From: an uncultured Actinomycetes bacterium
GTDB lineage: Bacteria; Actinomycetota; Thermoleophilia; RBG-16-64-13
Assembly: GCA_903873715.1 (NCBI GenBank)
Contig: CAIQPS010000074.1
Coordinates: 2,976-66,975, forward strand
Length of the DNA stretch: 64,000 nt
Direction of reading: 5' to 3'
Positions 12,715 to 61,276 of the stretch are shown one piece after another. The position numbers were made by a program, and so were the translations under genes. Each line of letters begins with the position of its first letter. Position 1 is the stretch's first letter. The notes beneath the pieces were generated by a model, which was not told the origin of the DNA, did no database searches, and saw only the letters and a list, made by a program, of their open reading frames with translations.

Positions 12715-12933
12715 GGGAGGCCCTTCCTGGGACGTGCGTTCCGGTGGCGACGATCGTCACAGACACTAACCACGGAGTCCCCGGGCGTCAAGGGAGAAGC
12801 CTGAGCCGCGGGTGGTGCGGCGCCTGTCGTGCGAGGTCCTCCTAGCGGCCCCCCGTCTTCGCCGCTAAGATGGTGTCTCGTGCCGGGCCTTCCGCCCCGC
12901 ATGTCTGCCGATCCCGCGTGGAGGTTGATATCG

Positions 12934-13611
12934 ATGCCCGTGTTCGACCCAGAGATAGTCCACGAATGCTCCATGGAATGCCTGGGCGCGCCCAAGCCGG
13001 AGATGTTCGACATCTTCGCCCGGTCGCTCGCCAAGCACTATCCCGGGGTCCTGGACTTCGACCAACCGTGGGTGTACAGCATCGCCGGCGGGGCGATGAT
13101 CCAGATGAAGCTCTACTACGCCTCGGCGACCGAGTACATCATGATCTGGGGGACGCCCATCGGGTCGGAGGGGCACTCGGGACGGCACTTCACCGGCTTC
13201 TGGGATACCGTCATCGACGGTGAGATGTGGTACTACGGCGAGGGCGAGTTCGAGAAGAAAGTCTACAAACCGGGTGACCGCGTCTACGTGGGCCCCGGCC
13301 AGGCCCGGGCGATGAACTTCACCGACGGCGTGTGGGCCGTCGAGTACGCGCGGGGCTTCATCCCCGCCAGCGTGCCCTTCGGCATCATGTCCGAGATCGT
13401 CGTCTGCTGGGACTTCCTCACGGCCGGCCAGACCCTCACCCTGTACGCCGACCTGATGTCGCAGTCGATAGGCCAGAAGTACCCGCAGGTGAAGCCGATC
13501 ACCGACACCATCAGCCGGCTGGCCGGCAAAGCGACCAAAGCGCTGGTGCCCGCGCCCGAGGTGAGCCGCATCCCGCAGAAGAACATCCGCTGGTTCCAGC
13601 GGAACACGTGA
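12934..13611 (+). CDS. ERG2/sigma-1 receptor family protein (bacterial homologue of C-8 sterol isomerase/sigma-1 receptor)
   Basis: EYIMIWGTPIGSEGHSGRHFTGFWDTVIDGEMWYYGEGEFEKKVYKPGDRVYVGPGQARAMNFTDGVWAVEYARGFIPASVPFG closely parallels the sigma-1 receptor/ERG2 cupin-like core. Start at ATG 12934 with a GGAGG 11 nt upstream; an alternative ATG lies at 12901, and the ORF-track start at 12829 is unlikely. Confidence 0.7.
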   Translation: MPVFDPEIVHECSMECLGAPKPEMFDIFARSLAKHYPGVLDFDQPWVYSIAGGAMIQMKLYYASATEYIMIWGTPIGSEGHSGRHFTGFWDTVIDGEMWYYGEGEFEKKVYKPGDRVYVGPGQARAMNFTDGVWAVEYARGFIPASVPFGIMSEIVVCWDFLTAGQTLTLYADLMSQSIGQKYPQVKPITDTISRLAGKATKALVPAPEVSRIPQKNIRWFQRNT

Positions 13612-28105: not shown

Positions 28106-29638
28106 CTACGCGGCTGGGCCGCGGCGTCTGAAGAGGAGCACGCCGAACACGACCGCCGCGATGAACGCCGCCCCCGCGACCGCGATGAGCGCGATGGGCC
28201 AGACGGTCCACATGCCGGACCCGGTGTTCACCACGGGCAGTTCGTTGAGCGTCGCGCCCGTCGAGAAGGCGGTCGTGGACGTCTTCGAAGTGGAGGTGGC
28301 GGCACCCGGGGCCGAAGTCGTGGTCGATGGCTGCGGACCTGCGGTGGTCGCTGTGGATGCGGAAGCCGCCCCGACCAGGGTGGCGAAGGGTTCGAACCCG
28401 GGTGCCGGCCGGCTCCCGAAGTCGACGGTGGTGAAGCAGACGTCGGCGCTCTTCGTGCCGGGGTAGCTGTCGATGACGTCGAAGCGTACCCATCCGGCCT
28501 TCCCAGAGATGGGGAACCGCTGCACAGAAGGCTCGTCCGCCAACCGGATGGTGGAGCTGGTCCCGTCGGAGAGGGTGACCTTGACGGTCTTCGGCCGGCC
28601 GTACTGCTTGAACGAGTCGTTCGAGCCGTTGTTGCCCGGCACGATCCTGATCTCCCGGATGTCCCTGTTCCCCGGGAAGGCGAAGCGCATCCACGGGCGC
28701 TTGCCCTGCAGGGGAGTGCCGGTCCCTTCGCGCAGCGGCTCTTCCCCGGGCTGGGTGGAGACGGTCGCGGGCGGGTTCGAGGTCGTCACCTCCGCGATTA
28801 CCGCTCCCAGCCCCGCGGGCGCGTTCTTGGGATCGGGCACGGGGATGCACGTGAACTCCAGGAAGATGTCGTCCCGCTCTGTGGGCTCGAGGTCGGTGAA
28901 GACCCACTGATAGGTGTCGGCGTCGACCTTGGTGTAGGTCTCGGGTCGGGTGGTGTAGGGCCACTGGTCGGGAGAGTCCTGCACAGGGGCCTTGATATCC
29001 ACCGCGTAGCCTTGGAAGTCGTCGGCCAGAGTGAACCGGACGACCGCTTTGCCTATGGTGCCCGCCCAGCCGGCGCCCGTGTGCAGCCAGTACTCGTAGT
29101 ACTCCTGCCAGCCTACATAGGCGAGGTCGCCGGGTTCTCCCCCCGGGGTCCTGACGTCTTCAGGCATCGACTCGGGGAAGCGCTCCCCCGCGACCCCGGA
29201 AGGCCGGGCGATGTACGACACCGAGATCATCGTCGCGCCGGTGGGGAAGGTGGCCTGGTGCAGGTAGTAGTAGAGGTCGGTGCTCTCGCCCTGACCGGTG
29301 GTGACGGCGAGCGGCGTGCCGTCCTGCCAGGCTCGGAAGGCCGTCAGCCCTTCGGGGCTCCTGCCGTCCAGCATGAACGGGAAGCCCAGCATGAGAGTCT
29401 GAGGGGCGCCGGAGTTGACGAAGCGGAAGTCCACGCGGAACTCGGCGAAGTCGCGGTAGCAGACGGCCTGCACCGTCTCCGACTCCATGCGGATGTCCGT
29501 GTTGGCCAACGGGTGGTAGTTCCCCGCGATGCCTCCGACCGACGAGTCGTCGGCCAAGGCCGGTCCCGCCGGCCACATCATGACCACGGCCGCGACGGCC
29601 AGCGCGGCAAATAGCGCGGCAGTCCTCACCCGTTCCAT
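28106..29638 (-). CDS. Hypothetical secreted/cell-surface protein with C-terminal membrane anchor
   Basis: Start at MERVRTAALFAALAVAAVVMMWPAGPALA (signal peptide). Large beta-rich ectodomain and a Thr/Ser-rich stalk. C-terminal NELPVVNTGSG followed by a TM helix and an RRRGPAA tail (sorting-signal-like topology). Confidence 0.6.
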   Translation of the reverse strand: MERVRTAALFAALAVAAVVMMWPAGPALADDSSVGGIAGNYHPLANTDIRMESETVQAVCYRDFAEFRVDFRFVNSGAPQTLMLGFPFMLDGRSPEGLTAFRAWQDGTPLAVTTGQGESTDLYYYLHQATFPTGATMISVSYIARPSGVAGERFPESMPEDVRTPGGEPGDLAYVGWQEYYEYWLHTGAGWAGTIGKAVVRFTLADDFQGYAVDIKAPVQDSPDQWPYTTRPETYTKVDADTYQWVFTDLEPTERDDIFLEFTCIPVPDPKNAPAGLGAVIAEVTTSNPPATVSTQPGEEPLREGTGTPLQGKRPWMRFAFPGNRDIREIRIVPGNNGSNDSFKQYGRPKTVKVTLSDGTSSTIRLADEPSVQRFPISGKAGWVRFDVIDSYPGTKSADVCFTTVDFGSRPAPGFEPFATLVGAASASTATTAGPQPSTTTSAPGAATSTSKTSTTAFSTGATLNELPVVNTGSGMWTVWPIALIAVAGAAFIAAVVFGVLLFRRRGPAA

Positions 29639-29710
29639 CTCGTCTCCCCTCCACGTTCGACGGCGGACCATCCCACTCGGAAAACCCTGCTATCTGCGAT
29701 AATAAGCCAC

Positions 29711-30457
29711 ATGGCCAGCGACGAGAAGCATACCGACGAGAAGAACATCGGCCGGCGGACGTTCCTCGGTCTCCTGGTGGCCGGCGTCGTGGCGTTCCTG
29801 TTCGGCAAAGACGTGCTGCCGGGCCTGACCACAGGCTCCTCACCCACGGCGACCACAGTGGCCGGCGGCGGATCGACGAGCACCACGGCGGGCGGCGGGT
29901 CGGAGTCGACCGGCACCACCAAGCCTGCGAAGTCGCCCACCGAAGGCTTCCGCATCAACAGCGTCAAGCCCGCTCCGGCGTTCGATCCGGCCACGTGGAA
30001 GCTCACGGTCGACGGGTTGGTGGCCGCTCCGCTCACCCTCGACTTCGCCGAACTCACAGCGCTCCCGCAGACCACCGTGGTGCGGGACTTCTACTGTGTG
30101 GAGGGTTGGGGGGTCGACCAGGTGGAGTGGAAGGGCGTCGCCCTGTCCGAACTGATGAAGCGCGCGCAGGTCGATCCCAAGGCCACGCACCTTCTGTTCC
30201 ATTCCAGCGACGGGGTCTACACCGACTCGCTCACCATCGAGCAGGCCGGCTTCGAGGATTCGCTCCTCGTGCACCAGGTCAACGGCGTCCAGTTGCCTCA
30301 CGACATGGGGCAGCCGCTGCGGCTCATCTATCCCGGCCACTATGGCTACAAGTACGTCAAATGGGTGGAGCGGGTCGAGGTGCTGGACATCAAGGAGAGC
30401 CCGTTCATCGGATACTGGGAGAGCTATGGATACACCTCAGAAGCCACCATCCACTGA
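29711..30457 (+). CDS. Molybdopterin-dependent oxidoreductase, sulfite-oxidase fold (MsrP/YedY-like), Tat-secreted
   Basis: Tat motif GRRTFLGLLVAGVV, a Thr/Gly-rich linker, and the Mo-binding domain with FYCVEGWG. Confidence 0.8.
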   Translation: MASDEKHTDEKNIGRRTFLGLLVAGVVAFLFGKDVLPGLTTGSSPTATTVAGGGSTSTTAGGGSESTGTTKPAKSPTEGFRINSVKPAPAFDPATWKLTVDGLVAAPLTLDFAELTALPQTTVVRDFYCVEGWGVDQVEWKGVALSELMKRAQVDPKATHLLFHSSDGVYTDSLTIEQAGFEDSLLVHQVNGVQLPHDMGQPLRLIYPGHYGYKYVKWVERVEVLDIKESPFIGYWESYGYTSEATIH

Positions 30458-31205
30458 GATGGAGGCCGGGGTGCCCGGCGACACGGCCGCGGCCGCTGGG
30501 AGTGGGGCCGCCGCGCCCGAAGGGCCGGCTGCGGCCCCGGCTTCCACGCCGGCTGTCCCGCTGGGCCGCATCCGCCGGTTCGTCCTGGCCGAGCGGCTGT
30601 CGCACTGGCTGTACGCACTGTTCTTCGTCGTGGCGTTCGTCACCGGACTGGTGATGTGGATCCCCAGCACCCGCGCGGCTCTCGAGGGGGCGCGGCTCGC
30701 GTTCTCGCAGTATCACGGGTACGTGGGCACGGCGATGGTCATCCTGCCGCTGCTCCTGTTCATCCTGCTCGACCGGCGCCGTCTGTTCCGGGACGTCCGC
30801 GAGATCGACCGCTGGGACGGGCAGGACCGGCGCTGGCTGGGGCTGGCGTTCCGGGGCCACACGCTGCGCGGCCGGCCGATGCCGCCGCAGGGCCGCTTCA
30901 ACGCCGGGCAGAAGCTCAACGTGGTGCTCGTGGCCGCGATGGCCATCGGCTTCGCCGCGAGCGGCGGCATCCTCATGCACAAGCAGGACATGTCGGCCTG
31001 GCTGGTCACGCGGGCCCTGTGGTTCCACTCGTTCCTCGCCGTGGTGGCGATCGCCCTCTTCGCGGGTCACCTGGCGCACGTGTTCGTCACCAAGCACGGC
31101 CGCACGTATCTGGCCGGGATGGTCCGGGGGTGGATCCCCGAGTCTCTGGCGCGGGAGCGGCACGAGCGCTGGTGGGCGGAGGAGTCCGACCGCCGGGTGG
31201 TGTAA
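30426..31205 (+). CDS. Cytochrome b-type membrane subunit (MsrQ/YedZ-like, Ni/Fe-hydrogenase cytochrome b fold)
   Basis: Multi-TM protein with conserved His in TM helices (HWLYALFF, HGYVG, HSFLAVV, HLAHVF). Start ambiguous: ATG 30426 (GGGAGAG RBS, 32-nt overlap) or ATG 30459 directly after the upstream stop. The ORF-track start at 30342 is unlikely. Confidence 0.7.
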   Translation: MDTPQKPPSTEMEAGVPGDTAAAAGSGAAAPEGPAAAPASTPAVPLGRIRRFVLAERLSHWLYALFFVVAFVTGLVMWIPSTRAALEGARLAFSQYHGYVGTAMVILPLLLFILLDRRRLFRDVREIDRWDGQDRRWLGLAFRGHTLRGRPMPPQGRFNAGQKLNVVLVAAMAIGFAASGGILMHKQDMSAWLVTRALWFHSFLAVVAIALFAGHLAHVFVTKHGRTYLAGMVRGWIPESLARERHERWWAEESDRRVV

Positions 31206-31255
31206 GCTTCTGTCTCCGGCCGAGAACGGCCGCATCAACAGAAGGGAACAGCGAC

Positions 31256-31720
31256 ATGCAGGTCACCAGCGGCGCCGTCGTGAGCCTCAGGTATACCCTT
31301 ACCGATGACGACGGGGTCATCATCGACACCAACGTCGATCATCCCGCTCTGGTCTACCTCCACGGGCACGGCAACATCATCCCCGGCTTGGAGACAGGGC
31401 TGGAAGGCGCCAGCACCGGCGACAAGCTCACCGTCGACGTCGCGCCGGCCGAAGCCTACGGCGAGGTCGATCCCGAGCGGATATTCGAGCTCAGCAAGGA
31501 GGCGTTCCCCGAGGAACTGCCGCTCGAGGAGGGCATGCAGTTCGTGGCGGAGACCCCCAGCGGCGACATGGCCCTCACCCTCACCGAGATCCTCGAGGAC
31601 ACGGTGCTGTGCGACGCCAACCATCCGCTCGCCGGCATGACCCTGCACTTCGACATCGAGATCCTCGATGTGCGGGAAGCCACGGCGGAAGAACAGCAGG
31701 CCGCTCAGCCCCTGTCGTAG
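31256..31720 (+). CDS. FKBP-type peptidyl-prolyl cis-trans isomerase (SlyD-like)
   Basis: 154 aa, MQVTSGAVVSLRYTLTDDDGVIIDT...LVYLHGHGNIIPGLE...GDMALTLTEIL. It is the C-terminal part of a longer spurious ORF. GAAGGGA RBS. Confidence 0.85.
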   Translation: MQVTSGAVVSLRYTLTDDDGVIIDTNVDHPALVYLHGHGNIIPGLETGLEGASTGDKLTVDVAPAEAYGEVDPERIFELSKEAFPEELPLEEGMQFVAETPSGDMALTLTEILEDTVLCDANHPLAGMTLHFDIEILDVREATAEEQQAAQPLS

Positions 31721-31777
31721 TAGCGGCGGCTGCGCAGCCGCCGCCCGGCCAGTGTAGGTCAAAGGTAGGAGGCGCAC

Positions 31778-32251
31778 GTGGGTGAGATAGTCCACACTTC
31801 GCGGATCACCATCATCCGGGAGAACAACGGGGTGCGGAAGGCCATCGTGGAAGGCCTTCCCGATCCCGTCTACTACGGGATGCATGGTGGGATCAAGAAG
31901 TTCTACAAGGTGGAGCCCGAGGTGGAGCACGCAGCCACTCTCGACCACATCGTCGGGGCGGTGGGCGGCTGAATGATGGGGACACTGGCCACGGCGCTGG
32001 CCAGCCGCAAGATCCCCACTCACACCGACCGCTACAAGGCGTTGGTGGAGGGCGACATCGAAGACGTCGACGGAGTGCTGCGCATCGCGCGGATCCGCGT
32101 AGACTACGACTTGAAGGTCCCACGCGGCAGGACAGCCGAGGCGCAGGAGGTGTTCGGCGCCTACCTGAAGAAGTGTCCTGCTGCGATGAGCGTCATCGGC
32201 TGCATCGACATCATCGACAGCCTGCAGGTGACCGAACTCGAGGACCGCTAG
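31778..32251 (+). CDS. OsmC/Ohr family peroxiredoxin-like protein with in-frame TGA (31970-31972) at the conserved peroxidatic Cys position; candidate selenoprotein (alternatively a disrupted gene)
   Basis: Two adjacent same-frame ORFs (31778-31972 and 31973-32251) separated only by TGA. The joined protein reads ...HAATLDHIVGAVGG[U]MMGTLATALASRKI... and ...AYLKKCPAAMSV..., aligning with the OsmC motifs GAALAAC-FSMAFTLALGKRGI and AKAGCPVSQA. GTG start with AGGTAGGAGG RBS, 5-nt spacer. Confidence 0.55.
31978..32017 (+). promoter_or_regulatory. SECIS-like stem-loop immediately downstream of the in-frame UGA
   Basis: GGGGA-ca-CUGGCC-acggcgcu-GGCCAG-ccgcaaga-UCCCC: a 6-bp upper stem with an 8-nt G/U-containing apical loop and a 5-bp lower stem. 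It starts 5 nt after the UGA, with the apical loop about 19-26 nt downstream. Confidence 0.35.
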
Positions 32252-38774: not shown

Positions 38775-39281
38775 CTACGCCCCCGCTGCCAGCCGCGCGG
38801 CCGCCTTGGTCTCCCGGTCCTGGGAGATGGCGTTCGGATCGCCCTGCTTGAGCGCCTTGGTGGGGCAGGCCCGCACGCACGCCGGCTCCAGGCCGTTCTC
38901 CAGCCGCACGGTGCACAGGTCGCACTTCTGCATGGTCCCCTCGACGCCGAACCGCGGCACGCCGAACGGGCAGGCGATGGAGCAGCTGTGGCAGCCGATG
39001 CACAGTTCCTGGTCGACCTTCACGGCCTTGGTACCCGGTTCGCGGGCGATGGCCCCGGTCGGGCAGGCGATGATGCACGGCGCGTCCTCGCAGTGCATGC
39101 AGGCGATGGACACGTAGCGCAGGCGGGCGTCCGCGCCGCTGCCGGTCTCCACCTTGAAGACGTTGCGCCAGGCGGTAGGCTCGGCGCCGATCTCCAGGTC
39201 GTTCTGGTCCATGCAGGCCACGGCGCAGGCCATGCAGCCGCTGCAACGGTCGACGTCGAGGTAGAAGGCGTGCTTGCTCAT
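38775..39281 (-). CDS. 4Fe-4S ferredoxin-type iron-sulfur subunit of a molybdopterin oxidoreductase (DmsB/PsrB/FdhB-like, four cluster motifs)
   Basis: CSGCMACAVAC, CMHCEDAPC..CP, CIGCHSCSIACP, CDLCTVR...C.RACP. 4-nt overlap with the catalytic-subunit gene. Confidence 0.85.
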   Translation of the reverse strand: MSKHAFYLDVDRCSGCMACAVACMDQNDLEIGAEPTAWRNVFKVETGSGADARLRYVSIACMHCEDAPCIIACPTGAIAREPGTKAVKVDQELCIGCHSCSIACPFGVPRFGVEGTMQKCDLCTVRLENGLEPACVRACPTKALKQGDPNAISQDRETKAAARLAAGA

Positions 39282-41515
39282 CGGGCCACCCCCTGGGCTC
39301 CGGCGGCGCTCGGCGCGATCTTCTTCACCGCGCAGAGCAGGGATTTGTATCCGGGGAAGCCGGACACCGGGTCGAGGTAGTCACCCGGGATCAGCGAGTT
39401 GGCGTCGGCCTCCGGGTAGTCGTGGTACATCTGGACGACGCCGGCGGGGACCAGTTCGGTGAGGTTGGCCTTCACCTGGATGGCCACGCCGGTGGGCGTC
39501 GAGAGCTCCACCATGTCGCCATGGGCGATGCCGAAGCGGGCGCCGTCGGCCGGGTTGAGGTCGGCCATGGCGTCGCGGCGCAGGCTGCGGGTCCACGGCG
39601 CGCGGAACATCCGGGAGTGCACGAACATGGGCAGCCGGGAGCCGGTGCCCAGCACCAGCGGGTAGTCGGCGGCCAGGTCGGGCGTCGAGACGGGGCTCAT
39701 CCACGGCTCGTTGTACTCGGGCAGACCGGCGATGCCCGGGCGGTCGGAGTACTTCTCCATCAACGACGAGACGAACTCCATCTTGCCCGTCGCGGTGGGG
39801 AAGCCCTTGGCCTGGTATTTCTTGAACGCCGGAGCGGGCGGGTCCGGCACGAACATGCCGCCCGGGTGCGCCTTCAGTTGCGCCATGGTCATGCCGTTGG
39901 GCTGGAACATCCAGTCGAGGGCGGCGTCGAAGGCCGCGCCGAAATCGGGCGCGCCGTTGGGCAGGAAGCCGCCCAGCTTGGCGGTGTGCTCGGCGTCGAG
40001 GGTCTGGTAGTCAAGCCCCAGCTTCTCGGCCAGCCCGAAGATGATGTCGGTGTCGGAGCGGGCTTCGGCGACCGGCTCGATGACCGGCTCGGTGTAAACC
40101 ACGTATTTCTGCGGATAGGCGCGGACCTCGGTGCGCTCCACCGACGTGGCCGCCGGCAGGATGATGTCCGCGTACTTTCCGCTGTCCGTGAACATCGGAT
40201 CGATGACGGCGATGAAGTCGAGCTTCTCGAGCGCGGCCAGCCAGCCTTTGGAATCGGGGAACATGCGGTAGTTGAGCCCGAAGGCCACCATGCCCCGCAG
40301 GGGATAGGGATCGCCGCTGTTCACCTGGCGCGGGAAGTCCATGGCCTGGGCCTGGTCGATCATCTCGGTCCAGACCGGGAAGCGCTGGGCGCCGAGGCGT
40401 GGCGGCATGTCGCTCCACGGGCGAGGCATCTTGTAGGGATGCTCGCGGGTGACGAAGCCGCTGCCGAACTCCAGCCACGCGGCCGGGCCGACGACGTTGC
40501 CACCGGGCACGTCGAAGTTGCCGGTGAGGCCGACCAGTGCGGCAGCCGCCCGCTGGTTCTGCACGCCGTTGGTGTTGTGCACCACCGGGGCCGCGCTGGG
40601 CTGCATGGCCGCCGACTTGGCCGTGGCGTACATGATGGCCGCTTCACGGATGAGGGCGGCCGGCACGCCGGTGATCTGCTCGGCCCGCTCAAGGGTGAAG
40701 GTGGCCGCGTAGGCCTTGTAGTCCTCGAACCCGTGCGCGTACTGGGCGACGAACTCCTTGTCGTGGAGCCCTTCGGCGATGATCACGTTGCCCATAGCCA
40801 GCGCGAGGGCGCCGTCGGTGCCGGGGCGGAGCTGCAGGTGGATGTCGGCGACGCCCGCGGTGGGCGACTTGCGCGGGTCGACGACGATGATCTTCACCCC
40901 GCGCTCCTTGGCATCCAGGATGCGGCGGGCGGTCGGGGTGTTGGAGTGCAGCGGGTTGGCGGTCCAGACGAGCAGACAGGACGTGTTGGCGAGATCGGGC
41001 GCGGCCGGGGTGCCGTAATCGAGCCGCCAGCCCATGGCCATGGCGGTGTGGCAGGCGCTCGACTCGGTGCAGTAGTTGGGCGAGCCGTACTGGAAGGCGA
41101 GGCGCTGGAGGAAGGGGCGGAGCTGCTTGGGATAGCCGCAGTAGAAGACCACCGACTCCGGGCCGCTTTCCTTCTTCAGCTTCTGCAGGTTCTCGGCGAT
41201 GGTGTCGAGGGCCTCCGTCCAGGAGATGGGCTCGAACCGGCCGGAGCCGCGCGGGCCGACCCGTTTGAGCGGGGTGCGCACCCGGTCCTCACTGTAGACC
41301 CACTGCCGCTGGGCGGCCCCTTTGGCGCAGAGCGTGCCCGCGCTGTGCGGGTTCTCGAGCGAGCCCTCCACCTTGATGATGCGCCCGTCCTTGACGTAGC
41401 AGTCGAGACCGCACTGCGTCGTCGGGTCGCAGATGGTGCAGATCGACTTGCGCACCTCGATCCCGGTGGCTTCTCCCGGTATCTTCGCCTTCTTCAGCTT
41501 CTGAAGCTTGTCCAT
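39278..41515 (-). CDS. Molybdopterin (bis-MGD) oxidoreductase catalytic subunit, cytoplasmic type (no Tat signal)
   Basis: Start at MDKLQKLKK (ATG 41513-41515, GGAGG RBS). N-terminal 4Fe-4S motif CTICDPTTQCGLDC...C and the MopB fold throughout. The 102-aa upstream extension in the ORF track is Arg-rich noise. Confidence 0.85.
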   Translation of the reverse strand: MDKLQKLKKAKIPGEATGIEVRKSICTICDPTTQCGLDCYVKDGRIIKVEGSLENPHSAGTLCAKGAAQRQWVYSEDRVRTPLKRVGPRGSGRFEPISWTEALDTIAENLQKLKKESGPESVVFYCGYPKQLRPFLQRLAFQYGSPNYCTESSACHTAMAMGWRLDYGTPAAPDLANTSCLLVWTANPLHSNTPTARRILDAKERGVKIIVVDPRKSPTAGVADIHLQLRPGTDGALALAMGNVIIAEGLHDKEFVAQYAHGFEDYKAYAATFTLERAEQITGVPAALIREAAIMYATAKSAAMQPSAAPVVHNTNGVQNQRAAAALVGLTGNFDVPGGNVVGPAAWLEFGSGFVTREHPYKMPRPWSDMPPRLGAQRFPVWTEMIDQAQAMDFPRQVNSGDPYPLRGMVAFGLNYRMFPDSKGWLAALEKLDFIAVIDPMFTDSGKYADIILPAATSVERTEVRAYPQKYVVYTEPVIEPVAEARSDTDIIFGLAEKLGLDYQTLDAEHTAKLGGFLPNGAPDFGAAFDAALDWMFQPNGMTMAQLKAHPGGMFVPDPPAPAFKKYQAKGFPTATGKMEFVSSLMEKYSDRPGIAGLPEYNEPWMSPVSTPDLAADYPLVLGTGSRLPMFVHSRMFRAPWTRSLRRDAMADLNPADGARFGIAHGDMVELSTPTGVAIQVKANLTELVPAGVVQMYHDYPEADANSLIPGDYLDPVSGFPGYKSLLCAVKKIAPSAAGAQGVAR

Positions 41516-42852
41516 GTCGCCTCCAAGTCGCCCGTCGCCCCCGTCGCCATCCTCGAGAACGCCTGTTTCATGACGCCCGCCGAGAGACAATCGTCGAGAA
41601 TATTGAGACCCACCAGCCGTCCGTCTCTCCAGAGCCGGACCTGCCGGGAACCGCCGTCGTCGGTCGTGGTGACCGTATCGTAGTCGTCGACGCAGCCCAT
41701 GCTTGCGAAGAGCATACGCCCGACGTGAGTGATGTTGTGGGGGATGCCTCCGGGATACCCGGACGGCTGGCCGGCGATGCTGCGCCCCGCCGCTCTTCCC
41801 TGGTAGCGCGCGCTCGACCAAAGGCCGATGATCTCGTGCCGGCCGGAGAGCAGGTTCTTGCCTTGGGCGACGTCACCCGCGGCGTAGAGACCGGGTGCGC
41901 TCGAGCGCATCTGGTCGTCCACGAGGATGCCCCTGCCGACGTCGACCTGTCCGGGCGCGAGGAAGTCCAGCGCCGGACGGTTGCCCGCGCAGACCACCAG
42001 CAGATCGGTCTCTTCGCGCTCGGCTCCGTCCTCGCAGGCGGTGCCGGGGTCTCCCGGGTCAGCGGCGCCCGGCAGGGCCCCGAAGTCCAGTCGTATCGCC
42101 GCACCCGGCACGGAGAAGTCCTCCGGGAGTCCTACCCCTGCCAATGCCGCACCCAGCCGCAGCCGAAAACCCTCACCCTTAAGGTGAGCTTCAAGGATGC
42201 GGGCCGCCTCCGGGTGCGCCGCCAACGGCAGCACGGAAGCCTCCCGCTCTATGAGCGTCACCTGGAAGCCCAGCCCGTGCAGCACCTCGGCGATCTTCAC
42301 CCCGGCGAAGGAAGCGCCGAGCACCGCGGCGCGCAGCGCGCCTCCGGCGGCTGCGCCTCTGACGCCCGCGCGCAGCCCATCGATGGCCCTCCTCAGCGCC
42401 AACGCGTCATCAACGGTCTGCAGCGCGAAGACCCGGCGTTCGGCACCCGGATGCGCCAACGCCTCTCTCAGCCCCGCGACAGGTGGTACCGCCGGCCTCG
42501 CTCCGGAGGCCACCAGGCACCGCTCATACCGGTATGTCCCGCGGGCGGTGGTCAACTCGCGGGCCTCGGTGTCGATGCGGGTGACCGGTTCCTCGAGATG
42601 GGCGGTCACCCGGTTGGCGTCATAGAAGGCGGAGCCGCTCCCGAAGGGGAAGGCCTTCTCCAAAGGCAGCTTGCCGCTCACCACGTAGGTCCCGAGCATG
42701 GGGTTGTAGGGAGCGTGCGCGTTGTCCGTGAAGAGGTGGATGTCGCCGGTCCAGCCGTTCGCGCGCAGCGCCAGGACGGCTTCGGCAGCCGCACCGCCGT
42801 TGCCGACGATCGCGATGGGTAGGAGCGTGGAAGTCACCAGGACAGAATACAT
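41494..42852 (-). CDS. FAD-dependent pyridine nucleotide-disulfide oxidoreductase (NAD(P)H:ferredoxin/rubredoxin reductase-like electron-transfer subunit)
   Basis: Two Rossmann motifs (IAIVGNGGAAAEA; VLGASFAGVKIAEVL) and a C-terminal dimerisation domain. 22-nt overlap with the catalytic-subunit start, consistent with translational coupling. Confidence 0.8.
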   Translation of the reverse strand: MYSVLVTSTLLPIAIVGNGGAAAEAVLALRANGWTGDIHLFTDNAHAPYNPMLGTYVVSGKLPLEKAFPFGSGSAFYDANRVTAHLEEPVTRIDTEARELTTARGTYRYERCLVASGARPAVPPVAGLREALAHPGAERRVFALQTVDDALALRRAIDGLRAGVRGAAAGGALRAAVLGASFAGVKIAEVLHGLGFQVTLIEREASVLPLAAHPEAARILEAHLKGEGFRLRLGAALAGVGLPEDFSVPGAAIRLDFGALPGAADPGDPGTACEDGAEREETDLLVVCAGNRPALDFLAPGQVDVGRGILVDDQMRSSAPGLYAAGDVAQGKNLLSGRHEIIGLWSSARYQGRAAGRSIAGQPSGYPGGIPHNITHVGRMLFASMGCVDDYDTVTTTDDGGSRQVRLWRDGRLVGLNILDDCLSAGVMKQAFSRMATGATGDLEATWTSFRS

Positions 42853-46847: not shown

Positions 46848-47537
46848 CTAGCGCTCGCCGGCGATCTGGCCGTCGATGCCGACCACCACAATCTTCACCG
46901 GGATGTCGACGCCTGCCAGGGTCACTGCTTTCCGGACCATGTGTTCGAGCCCGCCGCAGCAGGGCACGGTCATGATGGCCGTGGTCACCGAGGCGGCCCC
47001 GGCGTCCTTGATGAGAGCCACCAGCTTGTCCAGATACGGCCCGGTCTCATCGAGCTTCGGGCAGGCGACCACCATCTTGCGGCCTTTGAGCAGGTCCGAG
47101 TGGAAGCTGCCCAGCGCGAAGGCCGTGCAGTCGGCGGCCACGAGCAGGTCGGCACCCCGGAAGTACGGAGCCGCCGGCGAGATGAGATGCAGCTGGATGG
47201 GCCACTGGGTGATCTCGGAGCGGGCCGGGGCGCCCGGCGCGGCCGCCTCTTCCTCGGGCTTGTGCACCAGCTCCACCGCCTCGTCCCCGCGGGTGCGCTT
47301 CACGTGCTCGACGGTGGCCTGGTAGTCGTAGGCCTCGACCTCGCGCTCCACCACTTTCAGCGCGTCGGTGGGGCAGACGTCGAGGCACATGCCCATACCG
47401 TCGCAGTAGAGCTCCTTGACCAGGACCGCTTTGCCCTCGTCGTCCAACTGCAGGGCGGCCTCGTCGCACGCCGTGGTGCAGGCGCCGCAGCCGTTGCAGA
47501 GGTCGCGGTCTATCTCGATGATCTTGCGCTTGGCCAT
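46848..47537 (-). CDS. 4Fe-4S dicluster ferredoxin-domain protein with C-terminal Cys-rich domain
   Basis: IEIDRDLCNGCGACTTAC ... CDGMGMCLDVCP (two [4Fe-4S] motifs), then ADCTAF, VVACPKLD, VPCCGGLEH. Confidence 0.7.
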   Translation of the reverse strand: MAKRKIIEIDRDLCNGCGACTTACDEAALQLDDEGKAVLVKELYCDGMGMCLDVCPTDALKVVEREVEAYDYQATVEHVKRTRGDEAVELVHKPEEEAAAPGAPARSEITQWPIQLHLISPAAPYFRGADLLVAADCTAFALGSFHSDLLKGRKMVVACPKLDETGPYLDKLVALIKDAGAASVTTAIMTVPCCGGLEHMVRKAVTLAGVDIPVKIVVVGIDGQIAGER

Positions 47538-47576
47538 GTCGTCAGTCCCCCTGCCGCCTGCGCCGGCGGCGACGCG

Positions 47577-49475
47577 TCAATTGATCTTGATGCCGTAGAT
47601 CTTCTGCCCCCTGGTGCCCACGACGATCATGTTGTCGAAGGCGGCCGGCGAGGCTTCGATGTTGGTGCCCAGGTTGATGTAGTCCACGATCTTGCCCGTC
47701 TTGCCCTCGAGCAGGAACATGTTGCCGACGGTGTCGCAGGCCACGATGTACGACTTGCCGGAGGGCGTGTACACGGCGACGGGCGAGCTCCACATGTAGT
47801 GGTTGGTCGGCCGGCGCCACACCTCTTCGCCGGTCTTGCGGTCCAGCGCCACGATGAGACCGCCGGCCGCGCTCGGCGTGCGGGCGATGGCGTAGATCAC
47901 CAGGTTGGCGATGTCCTTCTGCCCCAGCACCGGGGTGTCCTGCACGCCGCCGGACACATCCAGCACCGTGAAGCACTTGTACGGCTCGCTCTCCCACACC
48001 ACCTTGCCGGTGGCCGCGTCGATCTTCCAGATGGGGATGTCGCCGGTGCGGCCGGCAGCGGTGGTCTTGGCTTTCTCGTGCAGCGACGTGGAGATATAGA
48101 TGTACCCGTGCCCGTTCTCCTCAGCGAAGACGGGGGAGGTGTTGGTATCGTCCAGCACGTTCTGCACCCACACCAGCTTCATGGTGTTGAGGTCCCAGCA
48201 GAACAGCTTGCCGCCGTTGTCCGTGACGTACAGGTAGTTCTTCCAGGCCACCGCGGAGTCTTCCATCCCCCAGAGCGGGCTGGTGACATTGGTGCCGGTG
48301 TCTTTGTAGGCGGGGTTGGCGTAGTTGACCTTGATGGGGGTGTCGGGGTCGACGGTGAGGGTGCCGGCCTCTTTGTCGAACTTGGTGTTCAGCTTGATGG
48401 TGTAGAGCACCCCGTTCTCACCCGGTTCGATGAGCGTGTCCGACTCCACATCGAACAGCGCCGAGGAGTCGTAGGCGTACCAGCTGCGGTACGAGGCGGC
48501 GTCGGGCTTGGCGCCGAAGGTGTAGAGCTCGGTCTGGTCGATGAGGCTGAACAGCCTGGCACGCGCCGTCTGCCGGGCCTTGGCTCCGTCCCCGTGCCCC
48601 ACGAAGAGCATGGGGATGCCGCTCGGGTAGATGCTGCCCGTGCCCTTGAACGGACCGCCCTTGGAGGTGATGGGCGACCGGGTGTAGAGGCCGTCCTGCA
48701 GGTCGAGGAAGTAGATCTTGCCGTCCAAGCAGGGGTAGATGACCTCGACCAGGTCCTTCTTCGCCTTCTTGGTGTCCTTGATGTTCATGATCTCTTTGAG
48801 ATCGTCCGGCCACCTGACGATGAGGGGTTGGCCGGTCCAGCCGCTGCCGGTCCACGAACCGGTGCCGCTCGCCTTGGCGATGGCTCCGCTGGTGGCCGTC
48901 CAGACGATCTGGAGCTTGGCCGTCTTGATGTCGGCGGTGCCGTAGTTGGCGCCGGAGCGGTAGTTGTTGCCCCGGAAGGTGATTATCCCTTCGAGGTCCG
49001 TGTAGTCCTTGCCGGCCCCGAAGCTGATGGGATCCTGGCGCGAGAAGCTGGTGAGGCGGCTGTCGCCCTTGAAGAGGTGGACGGTCATGTCGAAGTCGCT
49101 GGGCTTCGTGCCCGCGATGGGGGCCACCGTCATGTCGATGGCGCTCGACCCGGCCTCCGAGGAGGTGGTCGACCCGGAGCTATCGGTGGAATCGGTCGAA
49201 CTGGAGCCTTCGCTCCCACTCGTCTTGGTGGTGCTGGACGACGTCTTGCCGGTGCTGTTGGTGGTGTTGCCGCTCGTACCGTCGTTGCCGCCCCACAGGA
49301 ACATCACGGCCACGACCACGGCCACGACCACGGCCAGGGAAGCCACCGCGAAGACTATGCGCCGCCGCTTGGCGGCCTTCCGCCTGCGCCGTGAAGATGA
49401 ATAGATAGACCGTTGGTATGGATCCACGTGTTCAGACCCGCTCTCTCCGGCGAGGGCCGCCGGGGGCATCCGCAT
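47577..49475 (-). CDS. PQQ-like beta-propeller repeat protein, membrane-anchored with Ser/Thr-rich stalk
   Basis: N-terminal TM helix (IVFAVASLAVVVAVVVAVMFLW) and an S/T-rich linker. Repeated beta-propeller blades (KIYFLDLQDG, KLFCWDLNTMKLVW, GKVVWESE, GEEVWRR). Confidence 0.75.
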   Translation of the reverse strand: MRMPPAALAGESGSEHVDPYQRSIYSSSRRRRKAAKRRRIVFAVASLAVVVAVVVAVMFLWGGNDGTSGNTTNSTGKTSSSTTKTSGSEGSSSTDSTDSSGSTTSSEAGSSAIDMTVAPIAGTKPSDFDMTVHLFKGDSRLTSFSRQDPISFGAGKDYTDLEGIITFRGNNYRSGANYGTADIKTAKLQIVWTATSGAIAKASGTGSWTGSGWTGQPLIVRWPDDLKEIMNIKDTKKAKKDLVEVIYPCLDGKIYFLDLQDGLYTRSPITSKGGPFKGTGSIYPSGIPMLFVGHGDGAKARQTARARLFSLIDQTELYTFGAKPDAASYRSWYAYDSSALFDVESDTLIEPGENGVLYTIKLNTKFDKEAGTLTVDPDTPIKVNYANPAYKDTGTNVTSPLWGMEDSAVAWKNYLYVTDNGGKLFCWDLNTMKLVWVQNVLDDTNTSPVFAEENGHGYIYISTSLHEKAKTTAAGRTGDIPIWKIDAATGKVVWESEPYKCFTVLDVSGGVQDTPVLGQKDIANLVIYAIARTPSAAGGLIVALDRKTGEEVWRRPTNHYMWSSPVAVYTPSGKSYIVACDTVGNMFLLEGKTGKIVDYINLGTNIEASPAAFDNMIVVGTRGQKIYGIKIN

Positions 49476-49516
49476 TGCGGCATTCTATCAAGACCGGGCG
49501 GCCACCGCCGCCCTGC

Positions 49517-51029: not shown

Positions 51030-51063
51030 CGAAGCGAGCGCCTTGTGCATGAGCCGCCCATAG

Positions 51064-51150
51064 CGGAGGGGAAGGGATTCGAACCCTTGAGACCTTGCGG
51101 CCTGCCGGTTTTCAAGACCGGTGCAATCAACCGAACTCTGCCACCCCTCC
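51064..51150 (-). tRNA. tRNA-Ser (anticodon TGA), type II
   Basis: GGAGGGGTGGCAGAGTTCGGTTGATTGCACCGGTCTTGAAAACCGGCAGGCCGCAAGGTCTCAAGGGTTCGAATCCCTTCCCCTCCG. Anticodon loop CTTGAAA (UGA reads UCA, so Ser not Sec). Confidence 0.85.
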
Positions 51151-51300: not shown

Positions 51301-51990
51301 TTAGAACGTGCCGGTGCTGACGGCCGTGCCCCAGACGACCAGCGCCAGCACGATGATGATCATCACCAGCACCCAGAACGCCACGCCGATGCCGAAGCTG
51401 ATCCAGCTCCACATCTTGGCCTTGCGGGACGCCTCCTGGGCCCCGTAGACATCGCCCATGGCGAGCAGGTTGCCCACCTTGGTGGCGTAGACGATCGCCA
51501 CGATGCCGGTGGGCCAGAAGCACAGTATCAGCGTGGCGATGGCCCAGCCGAGATGGCTCGGGACGTGCGGGACCACCCCCTGGTTGTACGCAGGCGGATA
51601 GCCGGGCTGCTGATAGCCTGCCGGCGGATAGTAGGCCCCCGGCTGACCGGGCGCCTGCTGGTAGGGCGGGGCCTGCTGGTAGGGCGGCGGGGTCTGGTAT
51701 GCCTGCCGGTACTGCGGCTCGTAGGGCGGAGGTGGGGTCGCCGGGGCGCCTGCGGGAGGCGTCTGGGCAGCCGTGTCGGCCGGGATCTCTTCGGCTGCGG
51801 GTTCGGCCGCCGGTTCGAAAGCGGGGACGGCCTCAGCGGCGGCCACGGGCTCGGCTGAGGCCGGCGTCTGGGCCGCTTCATCCGCCGCAGGAGCGGACCA
51901 CTGCTCCTTGTACTTCCTCAGGTCGGTCCCGCAGTTGGCGCAGAAGGCGGCGCTCTCGTCGTTGGTGGCGCCACATTGTGGGCAAAACAT
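51301..51990 (-). CDS. CD225/dispanin family membrane protein with N-terminal zinc-ribbon and Pro/Tyr/Gln-rich linker
   Basis: MFCPQCGATNDESAAFCANCG zinc ribbon, PPPYEPQYRQAYQTPPPYQQAPPYQQAP low-complexity linker, and C-terminal two-TM CD225-like domain (HLGWAIATLILCFWPTGIVAIVYATKV). Confidence 0.7.
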   Translation of the reverse strand: MFCPQCGATNDESAAFCANCGTDLRKYKEQWSAPAADEAAQTPASAEPVAAAEAVPAFEPAAEPAAEEIPADTAAQTPPAGAPATPPPPYEPQYRQAYQTPPPYQQAPPYQQAPGQPGAYYPPAGYQQPGYPPAYNQGVVPHVPSHLGWAIATLILCFWPTGIVAIVYATKVGNLLAMGDVYGAQEASRKAKMWSWISFGIGVAFWVLVMIIIVLALVVWGTAVSTGTF

Positions 51991-52059
51991 ATGCGCCTCT
52001 CTTCTCATGCTCGGGGTCGCGTGATGCTAGGTTTATCACAAAGCGTTGGGGAGGTTGAT

Positions 52060-52659: not shown

Positions 52660-52820
52660 CAGGTCGCGTGCCAACCACTCGTTCAGCGACACCGGCGGGG
52701 TCTCCGCGCCTCACGGGGAGCGCGTGCTGGTGATCGACCGCCAGGTGAACAGGGCGTTGCGGGCCGGGGGCGAAAAGAGGTACCGGCCGAGTGTGGGCTA
52801 GCAGGAAGATGAGGGCTCGA

Positions 52821-54512
52821 ATGAACAAGATGACCTTGGGTCCCCTGGAAAAGTGCCCTACCGGTATCGAGGGCCTGGATGAGCTGTTGAACGGGGGTCT
52901 CCCCCGAGGGCGGCCGACCCTGGTCTGCGGGTCGGCGGGCTGCGGCAAGACGCTGCTGGCCATGGAGTTTCTGGTGCGCGGCGCCGTGGAGTTCGGCGAG
53001 CCGGGCGTCTTCATGGCGTTCGAGGAGAACGGGCAGGAGCTCGCTCAGAATGTTGCGTCTCTCGGCTTCGATCTGCCGGGTCTCATCGCCGCCAAGAAGG
53101 TGGCGGTGGACTTCGTCAGTGTCGCCCGGGAGGAGATCGAAGCGACGGGCGAGTACGACCTGGAGGGCCTCTTCATCCGCTTGGACCACGCGATCAACTC
53201 GGTCGGCGCCAAGCGGGTGGTACTGGACACCGTCGAGTCGCTCTTCTCGGGGCTTCCTCACCCCATGATCCTGCGCGGCGAGCTTCGCCGCCTGTTCCGT
53301 TGGCTGAAGGAGAGGGGGGTGACGGTCATCATCACGGGAGAGCGTGGCGAAGGCTCGCTCACCCGGCAGGGTTTGGAAGAGTATGTCTCCGATTGCGTCA
53401 TCCTCCTCGATCACCGTATCGTCGAGCAGATCTCCACACGGCGGCTGCGCGTGGTCAAGTACCGTGGCTCGACTCACGGCACCAACGAGTACCCCTTCCT
53501 CATCGGTGAGAAGGGCTTCTCGGTGCTGCCCATCACCTCCCTGGGCCTGCAGCATGTCGCCCGCAACGAGAGGGTCTCGACCGGCGTCCCCCGTTTGGAC
53601 GCCATGTTGGGCGGCAACGGATACTATCGCGGCAGCACCGTGCTGGTGTCCGGCACCGCCGGCTGCGGCAAGACCAGCCTCGCGGCACATTTCGTCGACG
53701 CGGCCTGCGCGCGGGGCGAGCGGGCCCTCCTTTTCGCTTTCGAGGAATCGCCCAGTCAGATCGTGCGCAACATGCGGTCCATCGGCATAGACCTCCAGCC
53801 CGCAGTGGATGCAGGGTTGCTGCAGTTCCATGCGGCCCGTCCGGCCATGCATGGCCTTGAGATGCACCTGGCGGCCATGCTCAGGGCTATCGACGAGTTC
53901 GAGCCGGCCGTCGTGGTCGTAGACCCCGCGAGTGCCTTCGTGGTCGCCGGCAACGACTACGACGTCAAGGCCATGATGATGCGCCTCGTGGACTATCTCA
54001 AGACGAAGGGCATCACTGCGCTCTTCTGTGCCCTTACCGCCGGTGAGCAGCTCGAAAGCAGCGACCTCGCAATCTCCTCGCTGATCGACACCTGGCTGCT
54101 CCTGCGCGTCATCGACCTTGCCGGCGAGCGCAACCGGGCGCTGTACCTGCTCAAATCGCGCGGCATGTGGCATTCCAACCAGATCCGCGAGTTCGTGCTG
54201 ACCGATCAAGGCGTCGATCTGGTGGATGTCTACGTGGGGCCGGCAGGGGTGCTGACCGGCTCGGGCAGGATGGCGCAGGAGGCGGCCGAAAAGGCCGCGA
54301 CGCTGGCGCGCCAGCAGGAGATCGGCCGTCGCCGGCGGGATCTTGAGCGCAAGCGCCTGGCGCTGGAGGCTCAAATAGCGGCTCTGCGGGTGGCCTTTGA
54401 AGCCGAGGAGGCCGAACTGGAGGAAGCGATCAGGCAAGGTGAGGACCGAGAGTCGGTGCTGGTGGAGGACCGGGTGGATATGGCCCGACTCCGCCACGCG
54501 GATCAAGTCTAG
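52821..54512 (+). CDS. kaiC: Circadian clock-type KaiC (double RecA-like ATPase) with C-terminal coiled-coil extension
   Basis: Two KaiC domains, each with Walker A (GSAGCGKT; GTAGCGKT) and catalytic EE (AFEENG; AFEESP). A Ser-Ser pair at the S431/T432-equivalent position (ISSLIDTWLLL). About 60-aa C-terminal extension with heptad-like charged/Ala/Leu pattern (AQEAAEKAATLARQQEIGRRRRDLERKRLALEAQIAALRVAFEAEEAELEEAIRQ). Confidence 0.9.
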   Translation: MNKMTLGPLEKCPTGIEGLDELLNGGLPRGRPTLVCGSAGCGKTLLAMEFLVRGAVEFGEPGVFMAFEENGQELAQNVASLGFDLPGLIAAKKVAVDFVSVAREEIEATGEYDLEGLFIRLDHAINSVGAKRVVLDTVESLFSGLPHPMILRGELRRLFRWLKERGVTVIITGERGEGSLTRQGLEEYVSDCVILLDHRIVEQISTRRLRVVKYRGSTHGTNEYPFLIGEKGFSVLPITSLGLQHVARNERVSTGVPRLDAMLGGNGYYRGSTVLVSGTAGCGKTSLAAHFVDAACARGERALLFAFEESPSQIVRNMRSIGIDLQPAVDAGLLQFHAARPAMHGLEMHLAAMLRAIDEFEPAVVVVDPASAFVVAGNDYDVKAMMMRLVDYLKTKGITALFCALTAGEQLESSDLAISSLIDTWLLLRVIDLAGERNRALYLLKSRGMWHSNQIREFVLTDQGVDLVDVYVGPAGVLTGSGRMAQEAAEKAATLARQQEIGRRRRDLERKRLALEAQIAALRVAFEAEEAELEEAIRQGEDRESVLVEDRVDMARLRHADQV

Positions 54513-54543
54513 GAAGAAGCGCTGACCGAGGCGCCATCGACCA

Positions 54544-54930
54544 GTGGCGGATGAGTCGGGTCGCGTAGTCGCAAGAGAGAAGGCCGTGGCAGCGAAAGAT
54601 CCTTTCAACTCTCCATCCGATGGGCAGCGCACCGCACCGCCCACCATCTGGGAGCTGCGGCTGTATGTCGCGGGACGAACGCCCAGATCATTGACGGCTT
54701 TCGCGAACCTCAAGGCTATCTGCGAGGAGAATCTGGGCGGCCGGTACACCCTCGAGGTGATAGACCTGCTCGAGAACCCGCAATTGGCGGCGGGGGACCA
54801 GATCCTGGCCATACCCACTCTGGTGCGCAGGCTACCGCCGCCCGTGCGGAAGATCATCGGCGACCTATCGAACACGGAGCGCGTGCTGGTGGGGCTGGAC
54901 TTGAGGACCGCTAGGGCCGTAGAAGAATGA
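54544..54930 (+). CDS. kaiB: KaiB (thioredoxin-like fold clock protein), copy 1 with N-terminal extension
   Basis: [83 protein letters not shown] matches KaiB along its whole length. About 40 extra N-terminal residues. Confidence 0.85.
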
Positions 54931-54943
54931 GAAGGAGATACCG

Positions 54944-55327
54944 ATGCTCCCGATGAAACCCCCCGAAGACAGTGCGATGGCCTCTGAGCGCGCGCTGGCA
55001 GAGTCACGGTCGACGGCTCCCACCTATGTTCTGCGGCTCTATATTGCCGGCAGCAGCCACGTGTCGGCCCGAGCGGTCGCCAACATCATGGAGATCTGCG
55101 AGACGCACTTACAGGGACGCTACGAACTGGAGGTGATCGACCTCTACCAGCAGCCCACTTTGGCCGAAGGCGAACAGATCATCGCCGCGCCCACGTTGAT
55201 CAAGAAGCTGCCTGCCCCTCTGCGCCGCATCATCGGTGACATGTCCAACACCGAAAAGGTGCTCGTAGGGTTGGACCTGCGCAAGAAGGAAAGCGATGCC
55301 AGAGGCATCACCAAAGTCAAGGAGTGA
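54944..55327 (+). CDS. kaiB: KaiB, copy 2
   Basis: LRLYIAGSSHVSARAVANIMEICETHLQGRYELEVIDLYQQPTLAEGEQIIAAPTLIKKLPAPLRRIIGDMSNTEKVLVGLDL. Confidence 0.85.
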   Translation: MLPMKPPEDSAMASERALAESRSTAPTYVLRLYIAGSSHVSARAVANIMEICETHLQGRYELEVIDLYQQPTLAEGEQIIAAPTLIKKLPAPLRRIIGDMSNTEKVLVGLDLRKKESDARGITKVKE

Positions 55328-59241: not shown

Positions 59242-59932
59242 GGTGCACCGGGTGGCCGTGCTCGTCGTAGGCGGCGGCGGGCCGATTTCCCGAGTCGGCG
59301 ATCTGCTCCGACCTGATGATCGTCACTCCAGCCGCCCGCATCTCGGCGTAGGCCCGGGCGGTGGTGTCCGGAGCCACTCCCCGCACCGCGTCTTCCACCA
59401 CAAAAACGGTGAAACCGGCCTTGCATGCGTCGAGGGCGGTGTTCTTGACGCAGTAGTCCGCCGTCAGCCCCGCGATGAAGACCCGCTCCACCTTGCGCAG
59501 CCGCAGGAACTCGGCCAGGTCGAGCCGTTGCTTGGGGAAGCCGCTGTACTCCTCGAGCGCAGGGTCGTCCCCCTTGCTGATGAGGATGGCGTTCATGGGC
59601 ATCTCGAGCCCGGCGCACCACGCCGCCCCCGGCGTGCCCTGCACGGCGTGCGGGGGCCAGGAGCCGTCGCGGAACTCCGGGTCAGCGGAGAAGCTGACAT
59701 GGTCGTGGGGGTGCCAGTCGCGCGTATAGACCCAGCGGCCGAACTTGGACGTGAGGCCGTTGATGACGGGCACGACGTCGAACCCGCCCTCGACGCCGAG
59801 GGCGCCGCCCGGGCAGAAATCGGCCTGGACGTCGACGACCATCAACACGTCGTGCGCGCCGGTCGAGACCGTGCCGCCGGCAGCAGCCGGTCCGGCCGCC
59901 GTCACGCCTGCGTCACCGCCCGGTCCGTTCAT
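59231..59932 (-). CDS. pncA: Nicotinamidase/pyrazinamidase (isochorismatase family)
   Basis: VVDVQADFCPGGAL and the catalytic Cys (ADYCVKNTALD). 11-nt overlap with pncB. Confidence 0.85.
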   Translation of the reverse strand: MNGPGGDAGVTAAGPAAAGGTVSTGAHDVLMVVDVQADFCPGGALGVEGGFDVVPVINGLTSKFGRWVYTRDWHPHDHVSFSADPEFRDGSWPPHAVQGTPGAAWCAGLEMPMNAILISKGDDPALEEYSGFPKQRLDLAEFLRLRKVERVFIAGLTADYCVKNTALDACKAGFTVFVVEDAVRGVAPDTTARAYAEMRAAGVTIIRSEQIADSGNRPAAAYDEHGHPVHHDD

Positions 59933-61203: not shown

Positions 61204-61276
61204 CGGCACTCCCCTCGGGGTATGAGGCTGTTTTCCATTATGGGCCGCCGCGAAGCGGCCCCGACCGGGGTCCGCG

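Follow-up and report, generated by a model that had tools for sequence, protein, structure and literature searches.

The 64-kb stretch of DNA considered here (contig CAIQPS010000074.1 of an uncultured Actinomycetota bacterium, positions 2,976 to 66,975; hereafter the window) carries on its plus strand, at 31778-32251, an OsmC-like gene whose reading frame contains an in-frame TGA. An earlier note on this DNA had put the gene forward as a candidate selenoprotein gene, in which the UGA would be read as selenocysteine (Sec), pointing to two same-frame open reading frames (ORFs) split only by a TGA, a strong ribosome-binding site and a downstream hairpin resembling a selenocysteine insertion sequence (SECIS). 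The layout is as that note described it. The gene starts with a GTG at 31778, behind a GGAGG Shine-Dalgarno sequence (Table 1), and its first ORF runs for 64 codons, the last of which ends at 31969, with the TGA at 31970-31972 directly after it; the second ORF, in the same frame, has 92 codons (31973-32248), opens with ATG ATG and is closed by a TAG at 32249-32251. The TGA is the sole interruption of the 157-codon frame.

The same arrangement is found in a large number of related genes. A protein search returned 784 homologues, most of them exactly 92 residues long, which corresponds to the fragment starting at the ATG after the TGA, and 70-90% identical, while a minority are full length (152-164 residues) and have either C or W at the UGA column (Cys in P0001, P0004-9, P0011, P0015 and P0104; Trp in the public proteins P0002, P0003, P0010, P0012-14, P0016, P0020, P0052 and P0090). 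In addition, 573 relatives turned up when one genome per species was scanned, and the 80 loci retrieved span at least five phyla: Actinomycetota, Thermoanaerobaculia/Acidobacteriota, Deferrimicrobiaceae and other Desulfobacterota-type lineages, Nitrospirota and Syntrophaceae. The earlier note had raised the question of whether orthologues carry TGA or a Cys codon at this position, and the answer is TGA in 78 of these 80 loci, TGT in one, TGC in one and TGG in none (the TGT/TGC loci, here called Cys-forms, are L063, L077 and L081). Because TGG was never found at the Sec column in DNA, we reject the W of the database proteins as a genuine Trp; these residues are probably gene-calling artefacts in which TGA was translated with genetic code 4.

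The coding sequence on either side of the TGA has been maintained. Comparison of the window gene with nine relatives for which the synonymous rate could be estimated gave ratios of nonsynonymous to synonymous substitution (dN/dS) of 0.15-0.27 for the part before the TGA and 0.16-0.39 for the part after it, and a second stop is present in none of the 78 TGA loci; as judged from these comparisons, both halves of the gene are under purifying selection. The 92-residue ORF of the window is also identical in three independent public assemblies, in each of which the gene was called as separate 64-residue and 92-residue genes, and this excludes a sequencing error and shows that the misannotation is systematic. 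Locus L011, a Thermoleophilia metagenome-assembled genome (MAG), has a frameshift near the 3′ end of the gene (L011:10380-10520), where the usual C-terminal sequence CIDIVDHLEISELEAR carries on in the +1 frame and the ORF after the TGA extends for 683 codons; either an assembly indel or a real lesion could be the cause.

What kind of protein does the joined frame encode? With the UGA position entered as Cys, the product matches the Pfam OsmC family PF02566 over residues 56-143 with 29.2 bits against a gathering threshold of 27.5, a narrow margin, and no NCBIfam model matched it even at E ≤ 10, OsmC and Ohr models included. When a profile of the family was aligned to proteins in the PDB, the UGA column fell on the peroxidatic Cys of Ohr 6d9n (SAC-F) and OsmC 1ukk (AGC-F), and C133 (KKCPAAMS) on the resolving-Cys motif of the same two proteins (CPYS, CPVS). 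The earlier note had claimed a full-length OsmC-like product of 157 residues with the UGA at the catalytic Cys and an intact resolving motif, and these results bear out each part of that description. Conservation is pronounced at both sites, as all 78 TGA loci read U-[M/L]-M-G-T at the first, and C133 and P134 are each kept in 78 of 78 at the second. Outside them, the family alignment has invariant residues in the N-terminal region (S8, R20, H36, G37, Y43 and D56); E95, like R20, is invariant, and E25 and E91 are nearly so. For structural comparison the natural Cys-form homologue P0001, which is 75% identical to the window protein, was modelled with AlphaFold (mean predicted local distance difference test score, 81.9), and the top 50 listed matches of this model in a Foldseek search of the PDB were all of OsmC/Ohr type, with a probability of 1.00 and E values down to 3.8e-7. 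Going by the Pfam match and the model of this close homologue, the window protein is of OsmC/Ohr fold. Its most likely function, by homology, would be thiol-dependent hydroperoxide reduction, with Sec65 as the peroxidatic and Cys133 as the resolving residue. A hydroperoxide-reducing cycle that proceeds through a bond between the peroxidatic and the resolving Cys is the expected chemistry of the Ohr/OsmC family.

The stem-loop that the earlier note had drawn just 3′ of the UGA is present where it was placed, and the structure (GGGGA/CUGGCC-loop-GGCCAG/UCCCC) folds with a minimum free energy (MFE) of -21.2 kcal/mol. A published model of bacterial SECIS (bSECIS) elements specifies an apical loop of 3-9 nt with a G in its first two positions, an upper stem of 4-16 bp, a distance of 16-37 nt between UGA and loop, and an MFE of -7.5 kcal/mol or lower (PMC13188914, Fig. 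2A). The earlier note had expected the hairpin to agree with bacterial SECIS elements, and it lies within all of these limits: the stem has 7 bp, the 6-nt loop begins 19 nt beyond the UGA, and its sequence, CGGCGC, has G at position 2 and again at position 3, which fits the pattern N1-G-G-N-N2-N. On the MFE fold all four criteria are passed by 62 of the 79 TGA sequences and by none of the three Cys-forms; of the other 17 TGA sequences, most keep the CUGGCC/GGCCRG stem, the MFE having selected a bulged or alternative variant. The energies of the core hairpin separate the two groups as well, averaging -11.6 kcal/mol at the TGA loci (range -7.9 to -14.7, loci of 42-47% GC included) as against -1.0, -5.0 and -7.0 kcal/mol in L063, L077 and L081, respectively. 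In all three Cys-forms the stem is broken by conservative or silent changes, e.g., CTGGCC to TTTGCC.

Variation within the TGA forms is of the kind expected if base pairing, and not only the encoded peptide, were being preserved. The pairs of the upper stem are retained in 97-100% of 70 distinct sequences, with a compensated change from C-G to U-A in five sequences and several wobble-compatible changes besides. Third positions of the hairpin codons (+4 to +10) have an entropy of 0-0.6 bits, compared with 1.3-1.95 bits at other four-fold sites; the third position of both Leu+5 and Leu+9 is G in 78 of 78 sequences, and by about codon +14 entropy is normal again. The lower stem is less conserved than the upper: 86% of cells are paired in the lower helix, in 10 sequences pair 12/45 has changed from G-C to A-U, and the lower stem is missing in this register from the RNAalifold prediction. 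In two Desulfobacterales-type loci (L045:10193-10246 and L047:5299-5352) CTGGCC...CTGGCC is replaced by CTGGCAGC...GCTGTCAG, with altered amino acids, and the RNA forms a stem re-registered by one position, CUGGCAGC-GGC-GCUGUCAG, which has 8 perfect base pairs and a triloop of GGC; this looks like a compensated SECIS variant. That the synonymous sites of the hairpin are nearly frozen in TGA orthologues and that the stem is lost in Cys-forms agrees with the conservation the earlier note had anticipated for a SECIS. Such a pattern indicates constraint at the RNA level, and the hairpin behaves as a bacterial SECIS would; we infer that it is bound by SelB.

A number of results weigh against a Sec-encoding UGA. 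Considered as a single sequence the window hairpin is not exceptional, with a z score of about -2.1 relative to dinucleotide shuffles and 7-8 of 200 shuffles equalling it, so that taken alone it is suggestive and not decisive; its significance derives from the conservation of the TGA and the upper stem across the 80 related loci. Changes on both sides of a pair occur at only two pairs, a pair count that was matched by 217 of 500 shuffles, although the cell counts and the covariation score do beat shuffles; covariation is limited here because the stem is so conserved. A search of Rfam at E ≤ 10 over 31900-32100 returned no SECIS family, only a spurious mir-667 (E = 6.3). The absence of a curated Rfam match is usual for family-specific bSECIS elements. 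ARAGORN, run on the window and on 81 loci, detected no tRNA-Sec, and no domain of SelA, SelB or SelD came up when about 47 ORFs of the window were annotated with Pfam; selA, selB, selD and tRNA-Sec were likewise not found in the sequence flanking the related loci, about 1.3 Mb in total. This is weak evidence, because the window and the flanks are a small fraction of each genome. At gathering thresholds Rfam reported three tRNAs only in the whole window, and a heuristic tblastn search with an approximate E. coli SelD query, which gave no match in the same 1.3 Mb, was uninformative.

Taking all of this together, we consider it probable, at roughly 90%, that the Sec pathway reads the UGA at 31970-31972 as residue 65 of a 157-residue thiol peroxidase-like protein of OsmC/Ohr fold. 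The proposal of the earlier note that Sec replaces a redox-active Cys thus gains support from the alignment of the catalytic column, the TGA in 78 of 80 loci, the fit of the hairpin to the SECIS model and the loss of the stem in Cys-forms. Translation would begin at the GTG behind the GGAGG, and the coding-region hairpin just 3′ of the UGA would serve as the SECIS, recruiting a complex of SelB, GTP and Sec-tRNA(Sec) so that Sec is inserted in place of termination. In the protein, Sec65 would substitute for the peroxidatic Cys, its selenolate attacking a hydroperoxide and becoming a selenenic acid; this would be resolved by Cys133 of the CPAA motif, and the selenenylsulfide so formed would be reduced in turn by a thiol or lipoyl donor. 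The insertion of Sec itself and the presence of selABCD, as well as the substrate and the reductant, are in this scheme inferred from the features described above.

Table 1. Features of the OsmC-like gene and its hairpin in the window.
Feature	Position	Strand	Description
Shine-Dalgarno sequence GGAGG	31768-31772	+	5 nt before the GTG start; read from the sequence
Predicted complete OsmC-like selenoprotein gene	31778-32251	+	157 codons including the UGA (Sec65), then TAG
In-frame UGA, predicted Sec codon (residue 65)	31970-31972	+	peroxidatic-Cys column of OsmC/Ohr
Extended hairpin	31977-32018	+	lower stem UGGGGA 31977-31982 / UCCCCA 32013-32018
SECIS core (predicted)	31985-32004	+	7-bp upper stem 31985-31991/31998-32004, apical loop CGGCGC 31992-31997
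TGT codon, Cys133, predicted resolving Cys in CPAA motif	32174-32176	+	aligns to CPYS/CPVS of Ohr/OsmC

Could the TGA be a genuine stop, with re-initiation at the AUG that follows it (UGA-AUG-AUG), so that a 64-residue and a 92-residue chain together form an OsmC-like fold lacking its first catalytic residue? In favor of this, ATG is found directly 3′ of the TGA in 78 of the 79 TGA sequences (the exception, L079, has CTG), these two ORFs are just what public gene callers annotate, and the Sec machinery of this genome is predicted only. However, the Cys-forms carry the Met-Met pair too (C-M-M-G-T), and Met-Met is therefore a feature of the protein and not a signal for starting or restarting translation. 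A GGAG or GAGG precedes the internal ATG in just 2 of 79 loci, whereas one precedes the conserved M-G-E start in 66 of 77; moreover, the position of the break coincides exactly with the catalytic-Cys column, and a hairpin conforming to the SECIS model is conserved in the TGA forms only. Re-initiation is for these reasons very unlikely in our view, and 31778-32251 is a single functional gene, not two. We assign an equally slender chance to the recoding of the UGA to a standard amino acid, either Cys, by way of a SelB/SECIS-dependent tRNA, or Trp or Gly, under an alternative code. The W residues at the Sec column of some database proteins would seem to speak for such recoding, and insertion of Cys through the Sec pathway would require the same SECIS and so could not be distinguished from Sec insertion by sequence alone. 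Yet TGG never occupies the column in DNA, Cys recoding is rare where it has been reported, and an alternative code is at odds with the many ordinary genes of the window that end in TGA, from which it follows that the organism uses TGA as a stop.

The alternative that the earlier note itself had offered, a nonsense-disrupted OsmC-like pseudogene, fares worst, as does the possibility that the TGA is a sequencing error of TGC or TGT. Pseudogenes are usually recognized by just such a stop within a conserved domain, and the Sec machinery was not seen in the 64-kb window, but 78 of 80 loci from different phyla would hardly share a TGA that arose by a chance lesion or error, and neither would three independent assemblies of the exact sequence. 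A lesion or error of this kind would also not go with dN/dS well under 1 in both halves of the gene and no further stops in 78 loci, or with synonymous sites frozen specifically within the hairpin. In the light of these comparative data we consider this explanation to be effectively refuted already, with a probability that is negligible.

A protein with Sec at this position is not without precedent, and the novelty implied by the earlier note was overstated. Zhang, Fomenko and Gladyshev described an OsmC-like selenoprotein family (COG1765/PF02566, motif UxxT) in 2005 from three Sargasso Sea sequences (PMC1088965); five more sequences were found in the Global Ocean Sampling data, and the family was still listed in reviews of 2022 and 2026. 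For comparison we used AACY01145085, from the supplement of the 2005 paper (PMC1088965). It belongs to the same Pfam superfamily and is a similarly small protein, and both BLASTP and hhalign place its Sec on the same column (VAGIGF-U-LLTQL versus VGAVGG-U-MMGTL in the window). It also has a C-terminal Cys on the aligned column of C133. Its SECIS, too, has a 7-bp stem, which starts 13 nt after the UGA compared with 12 nt in the window. The similarity is nonetheless distant: BLASTP aligned 43 residues only, with 35% identity, and hhalign gave a probability of 81.5% (E = 1.1e-5) with 24% identity over 102 columns. The window protein is 20 residues longer (157 versus 137), its aligned core starts about 30 residues further in (residue 41 versus residue 11), and its subfamily reads U-M-M-G-T, with Thr at +4, as opposed to the U-L-L-T of AACY01145085, and therefore falls outside the UxxT motif. 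The SECIS elements differ in sequence both in the stems and in the loop, which is a GUA triloop in AACY01145085 but CGGYGC in the window subfamily. In distribution, the published family is rare and marine (three and five sequences), whereas the branch to which the window gene belongs is represented by hundreds of members in MAGs from soil, sediment and groundwater, most of which are Sec-forms. From their sequences the two proteins would appear to be homologous but clearly to represent separate subfamilies.

Relative to the two-Cys organic hydroperoxide reductases of the Ohr/OsmC type (PDB 6d9n, 1ukk, 1nye, 1n2f), the window protein shares the fold and has both catalytic positions occupied, but it differs in its predicted Sec in place of the peroxidatic Cys, in an identity of just 10-20% and in N-terminal invariant residues of its own. 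In the same way, its hairpin is like the SECIS of the E. coli fdhF type and the bSECISearch consensus in lying within the coding region immediately 3′ of the UGA, in its small G-containing apical loop, in a spacing within 16-37 nt and in an MFE under -7.5 kcal/mol, while it has no resemblance to them in primary sequence.

What, then, would be new? OsmC-like proteins with Sec in place of the peroxidatic Cys are already known, and the general biology of Sec is unchanged by our observations because this substitution has been documented; the new element is a divergent, widespread and misannotated branch. We see an even chance that the window gene is a member of an uncatalogued, mainly Sec-containing OsmC-like clade (ATLDHIV-x5-U-MMGT ... 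CPAA) that extends over hundreds of species, has a SECIS nearly identical in nucleotide sequence across phyla and is distinct from the marine UxxT family. The clade spans Actinomycetota, Acidobacteriota, Desulfobacterota-type lineages and Nitrospirota, matches no NCBIfam model and is split or mistranslated in public annotation, where it appears as two hypothetical proteins of 64 and 92 residues or as a Trp-containing code-4 protein. The near-identity of the SECIS across phyla suggests that gene and SECIS spread jointly by horizontal transfer. As a consequence of the misannotation, hundreds of genomes would be without a correctly annotated antioxidant selenoenzyme and censuses of selenoproteomes would undercount, which a dedicated family model would correct. 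For the uncultured Actinomycetota lineage of the window, the gene is an indication that Sec is used and predicts selABCD elsewhere in the genome. Furthermore, the Sec-forms, in which the hairpin is frozen at synonymous sites at 42-67% GC, and the Cys-forms, in which it has decayed, make up a clean natural data set on what a bacterial SECIS needs.

Directly upstream of the gene, at 29615-31717 (+), are genes for an MsrP-like molybdopterin oxidoreductase (PF00174), an MsrQ-like cytochrome b561 (PF01292) and an FKBP-type isomerase (PF00254), and in the actinobacterial lineage a carboxylesterase gene lies downstream. The MsrPQ/FKBP neighborhood is an oxidative-damage repair context, but it is specific to the lineage, being shared by syntenic actinobacterial loci and not by other phyla, since no neighbor cluster is present in more than 12 of the approximately 80 loci. 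No conserved operon partner emerged from this comparison, and the gene appears to stand alone.

A scan of the whole window (67% GC) for in-frame TGAs with a coding signal on both sides, as measured by GC content at third codon positions, identified one further case, at 47577-47579 on the minus strand. Here, within 46848-49484 (-), a 635-codon ORF of the beta-propeller/pyrroloquinoline quinone-like type is followed by the TGA and then, in frame, by a 242-codon ORF resembling 4Fe-4S ferredoxins. We rejected it as a read-through candidate and regard the TGA as an ordinary stop between two genes, because the ferredoxin-like gene has its own ATG a few codons downstream. Other in-frame TGAs in the flanks of the actinobacterial loci were discarded, as only cases of a stop followed by the next gene were encountered; two with coding sequence on both sides, in L007 near 6100 (-) and L009 near 11802 (-) (158+375 and 542+236 codons, respectively), are probably of this type. 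A molybdopterin oxidoreductase at 39281-41872 (-) was considered as a Sec-containing formate dehydrogenase and rejected, having no in-frame TGA. With its Fe4S4 domain, this oxidoreductase adjoins a pyridine-nucleotide disulphide oxidoreductase (39281-42852, -), and the stop-to-stop frames of the two overlap by about 380 nt (41494-41872).

Several other features of the window may be recorded. A tRNA-Ser(UGA) at 51063-51150 (-) adjoins a gene for a zinc-ribbon and CD225/dispanin-family membrane protein (51304-52026, -). Seryl-tRNA synthetase also charges tRNA-Sec; its gene is found at 59932-61305 (-), about 9 kb from the tRNA, and as a housekeeping gene is uninformative on the use of Sec. An ORF at 12805-13608 (+) matches the ERG2/sigma-1 receptor family (PF04622, E = 1.4e-46), which is best known from eukaryotic sterol isomerases. 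Finally, the segment at 52749-57452 (+) encodes a KaiC-like double-domain ATPase (PF06745, E = 4.6e-105) and, after it, a histidine kinase of PAS-PAS type that also has a receiver domain, and may represent a KaiC-based signalling module outside the cyanobacteria.

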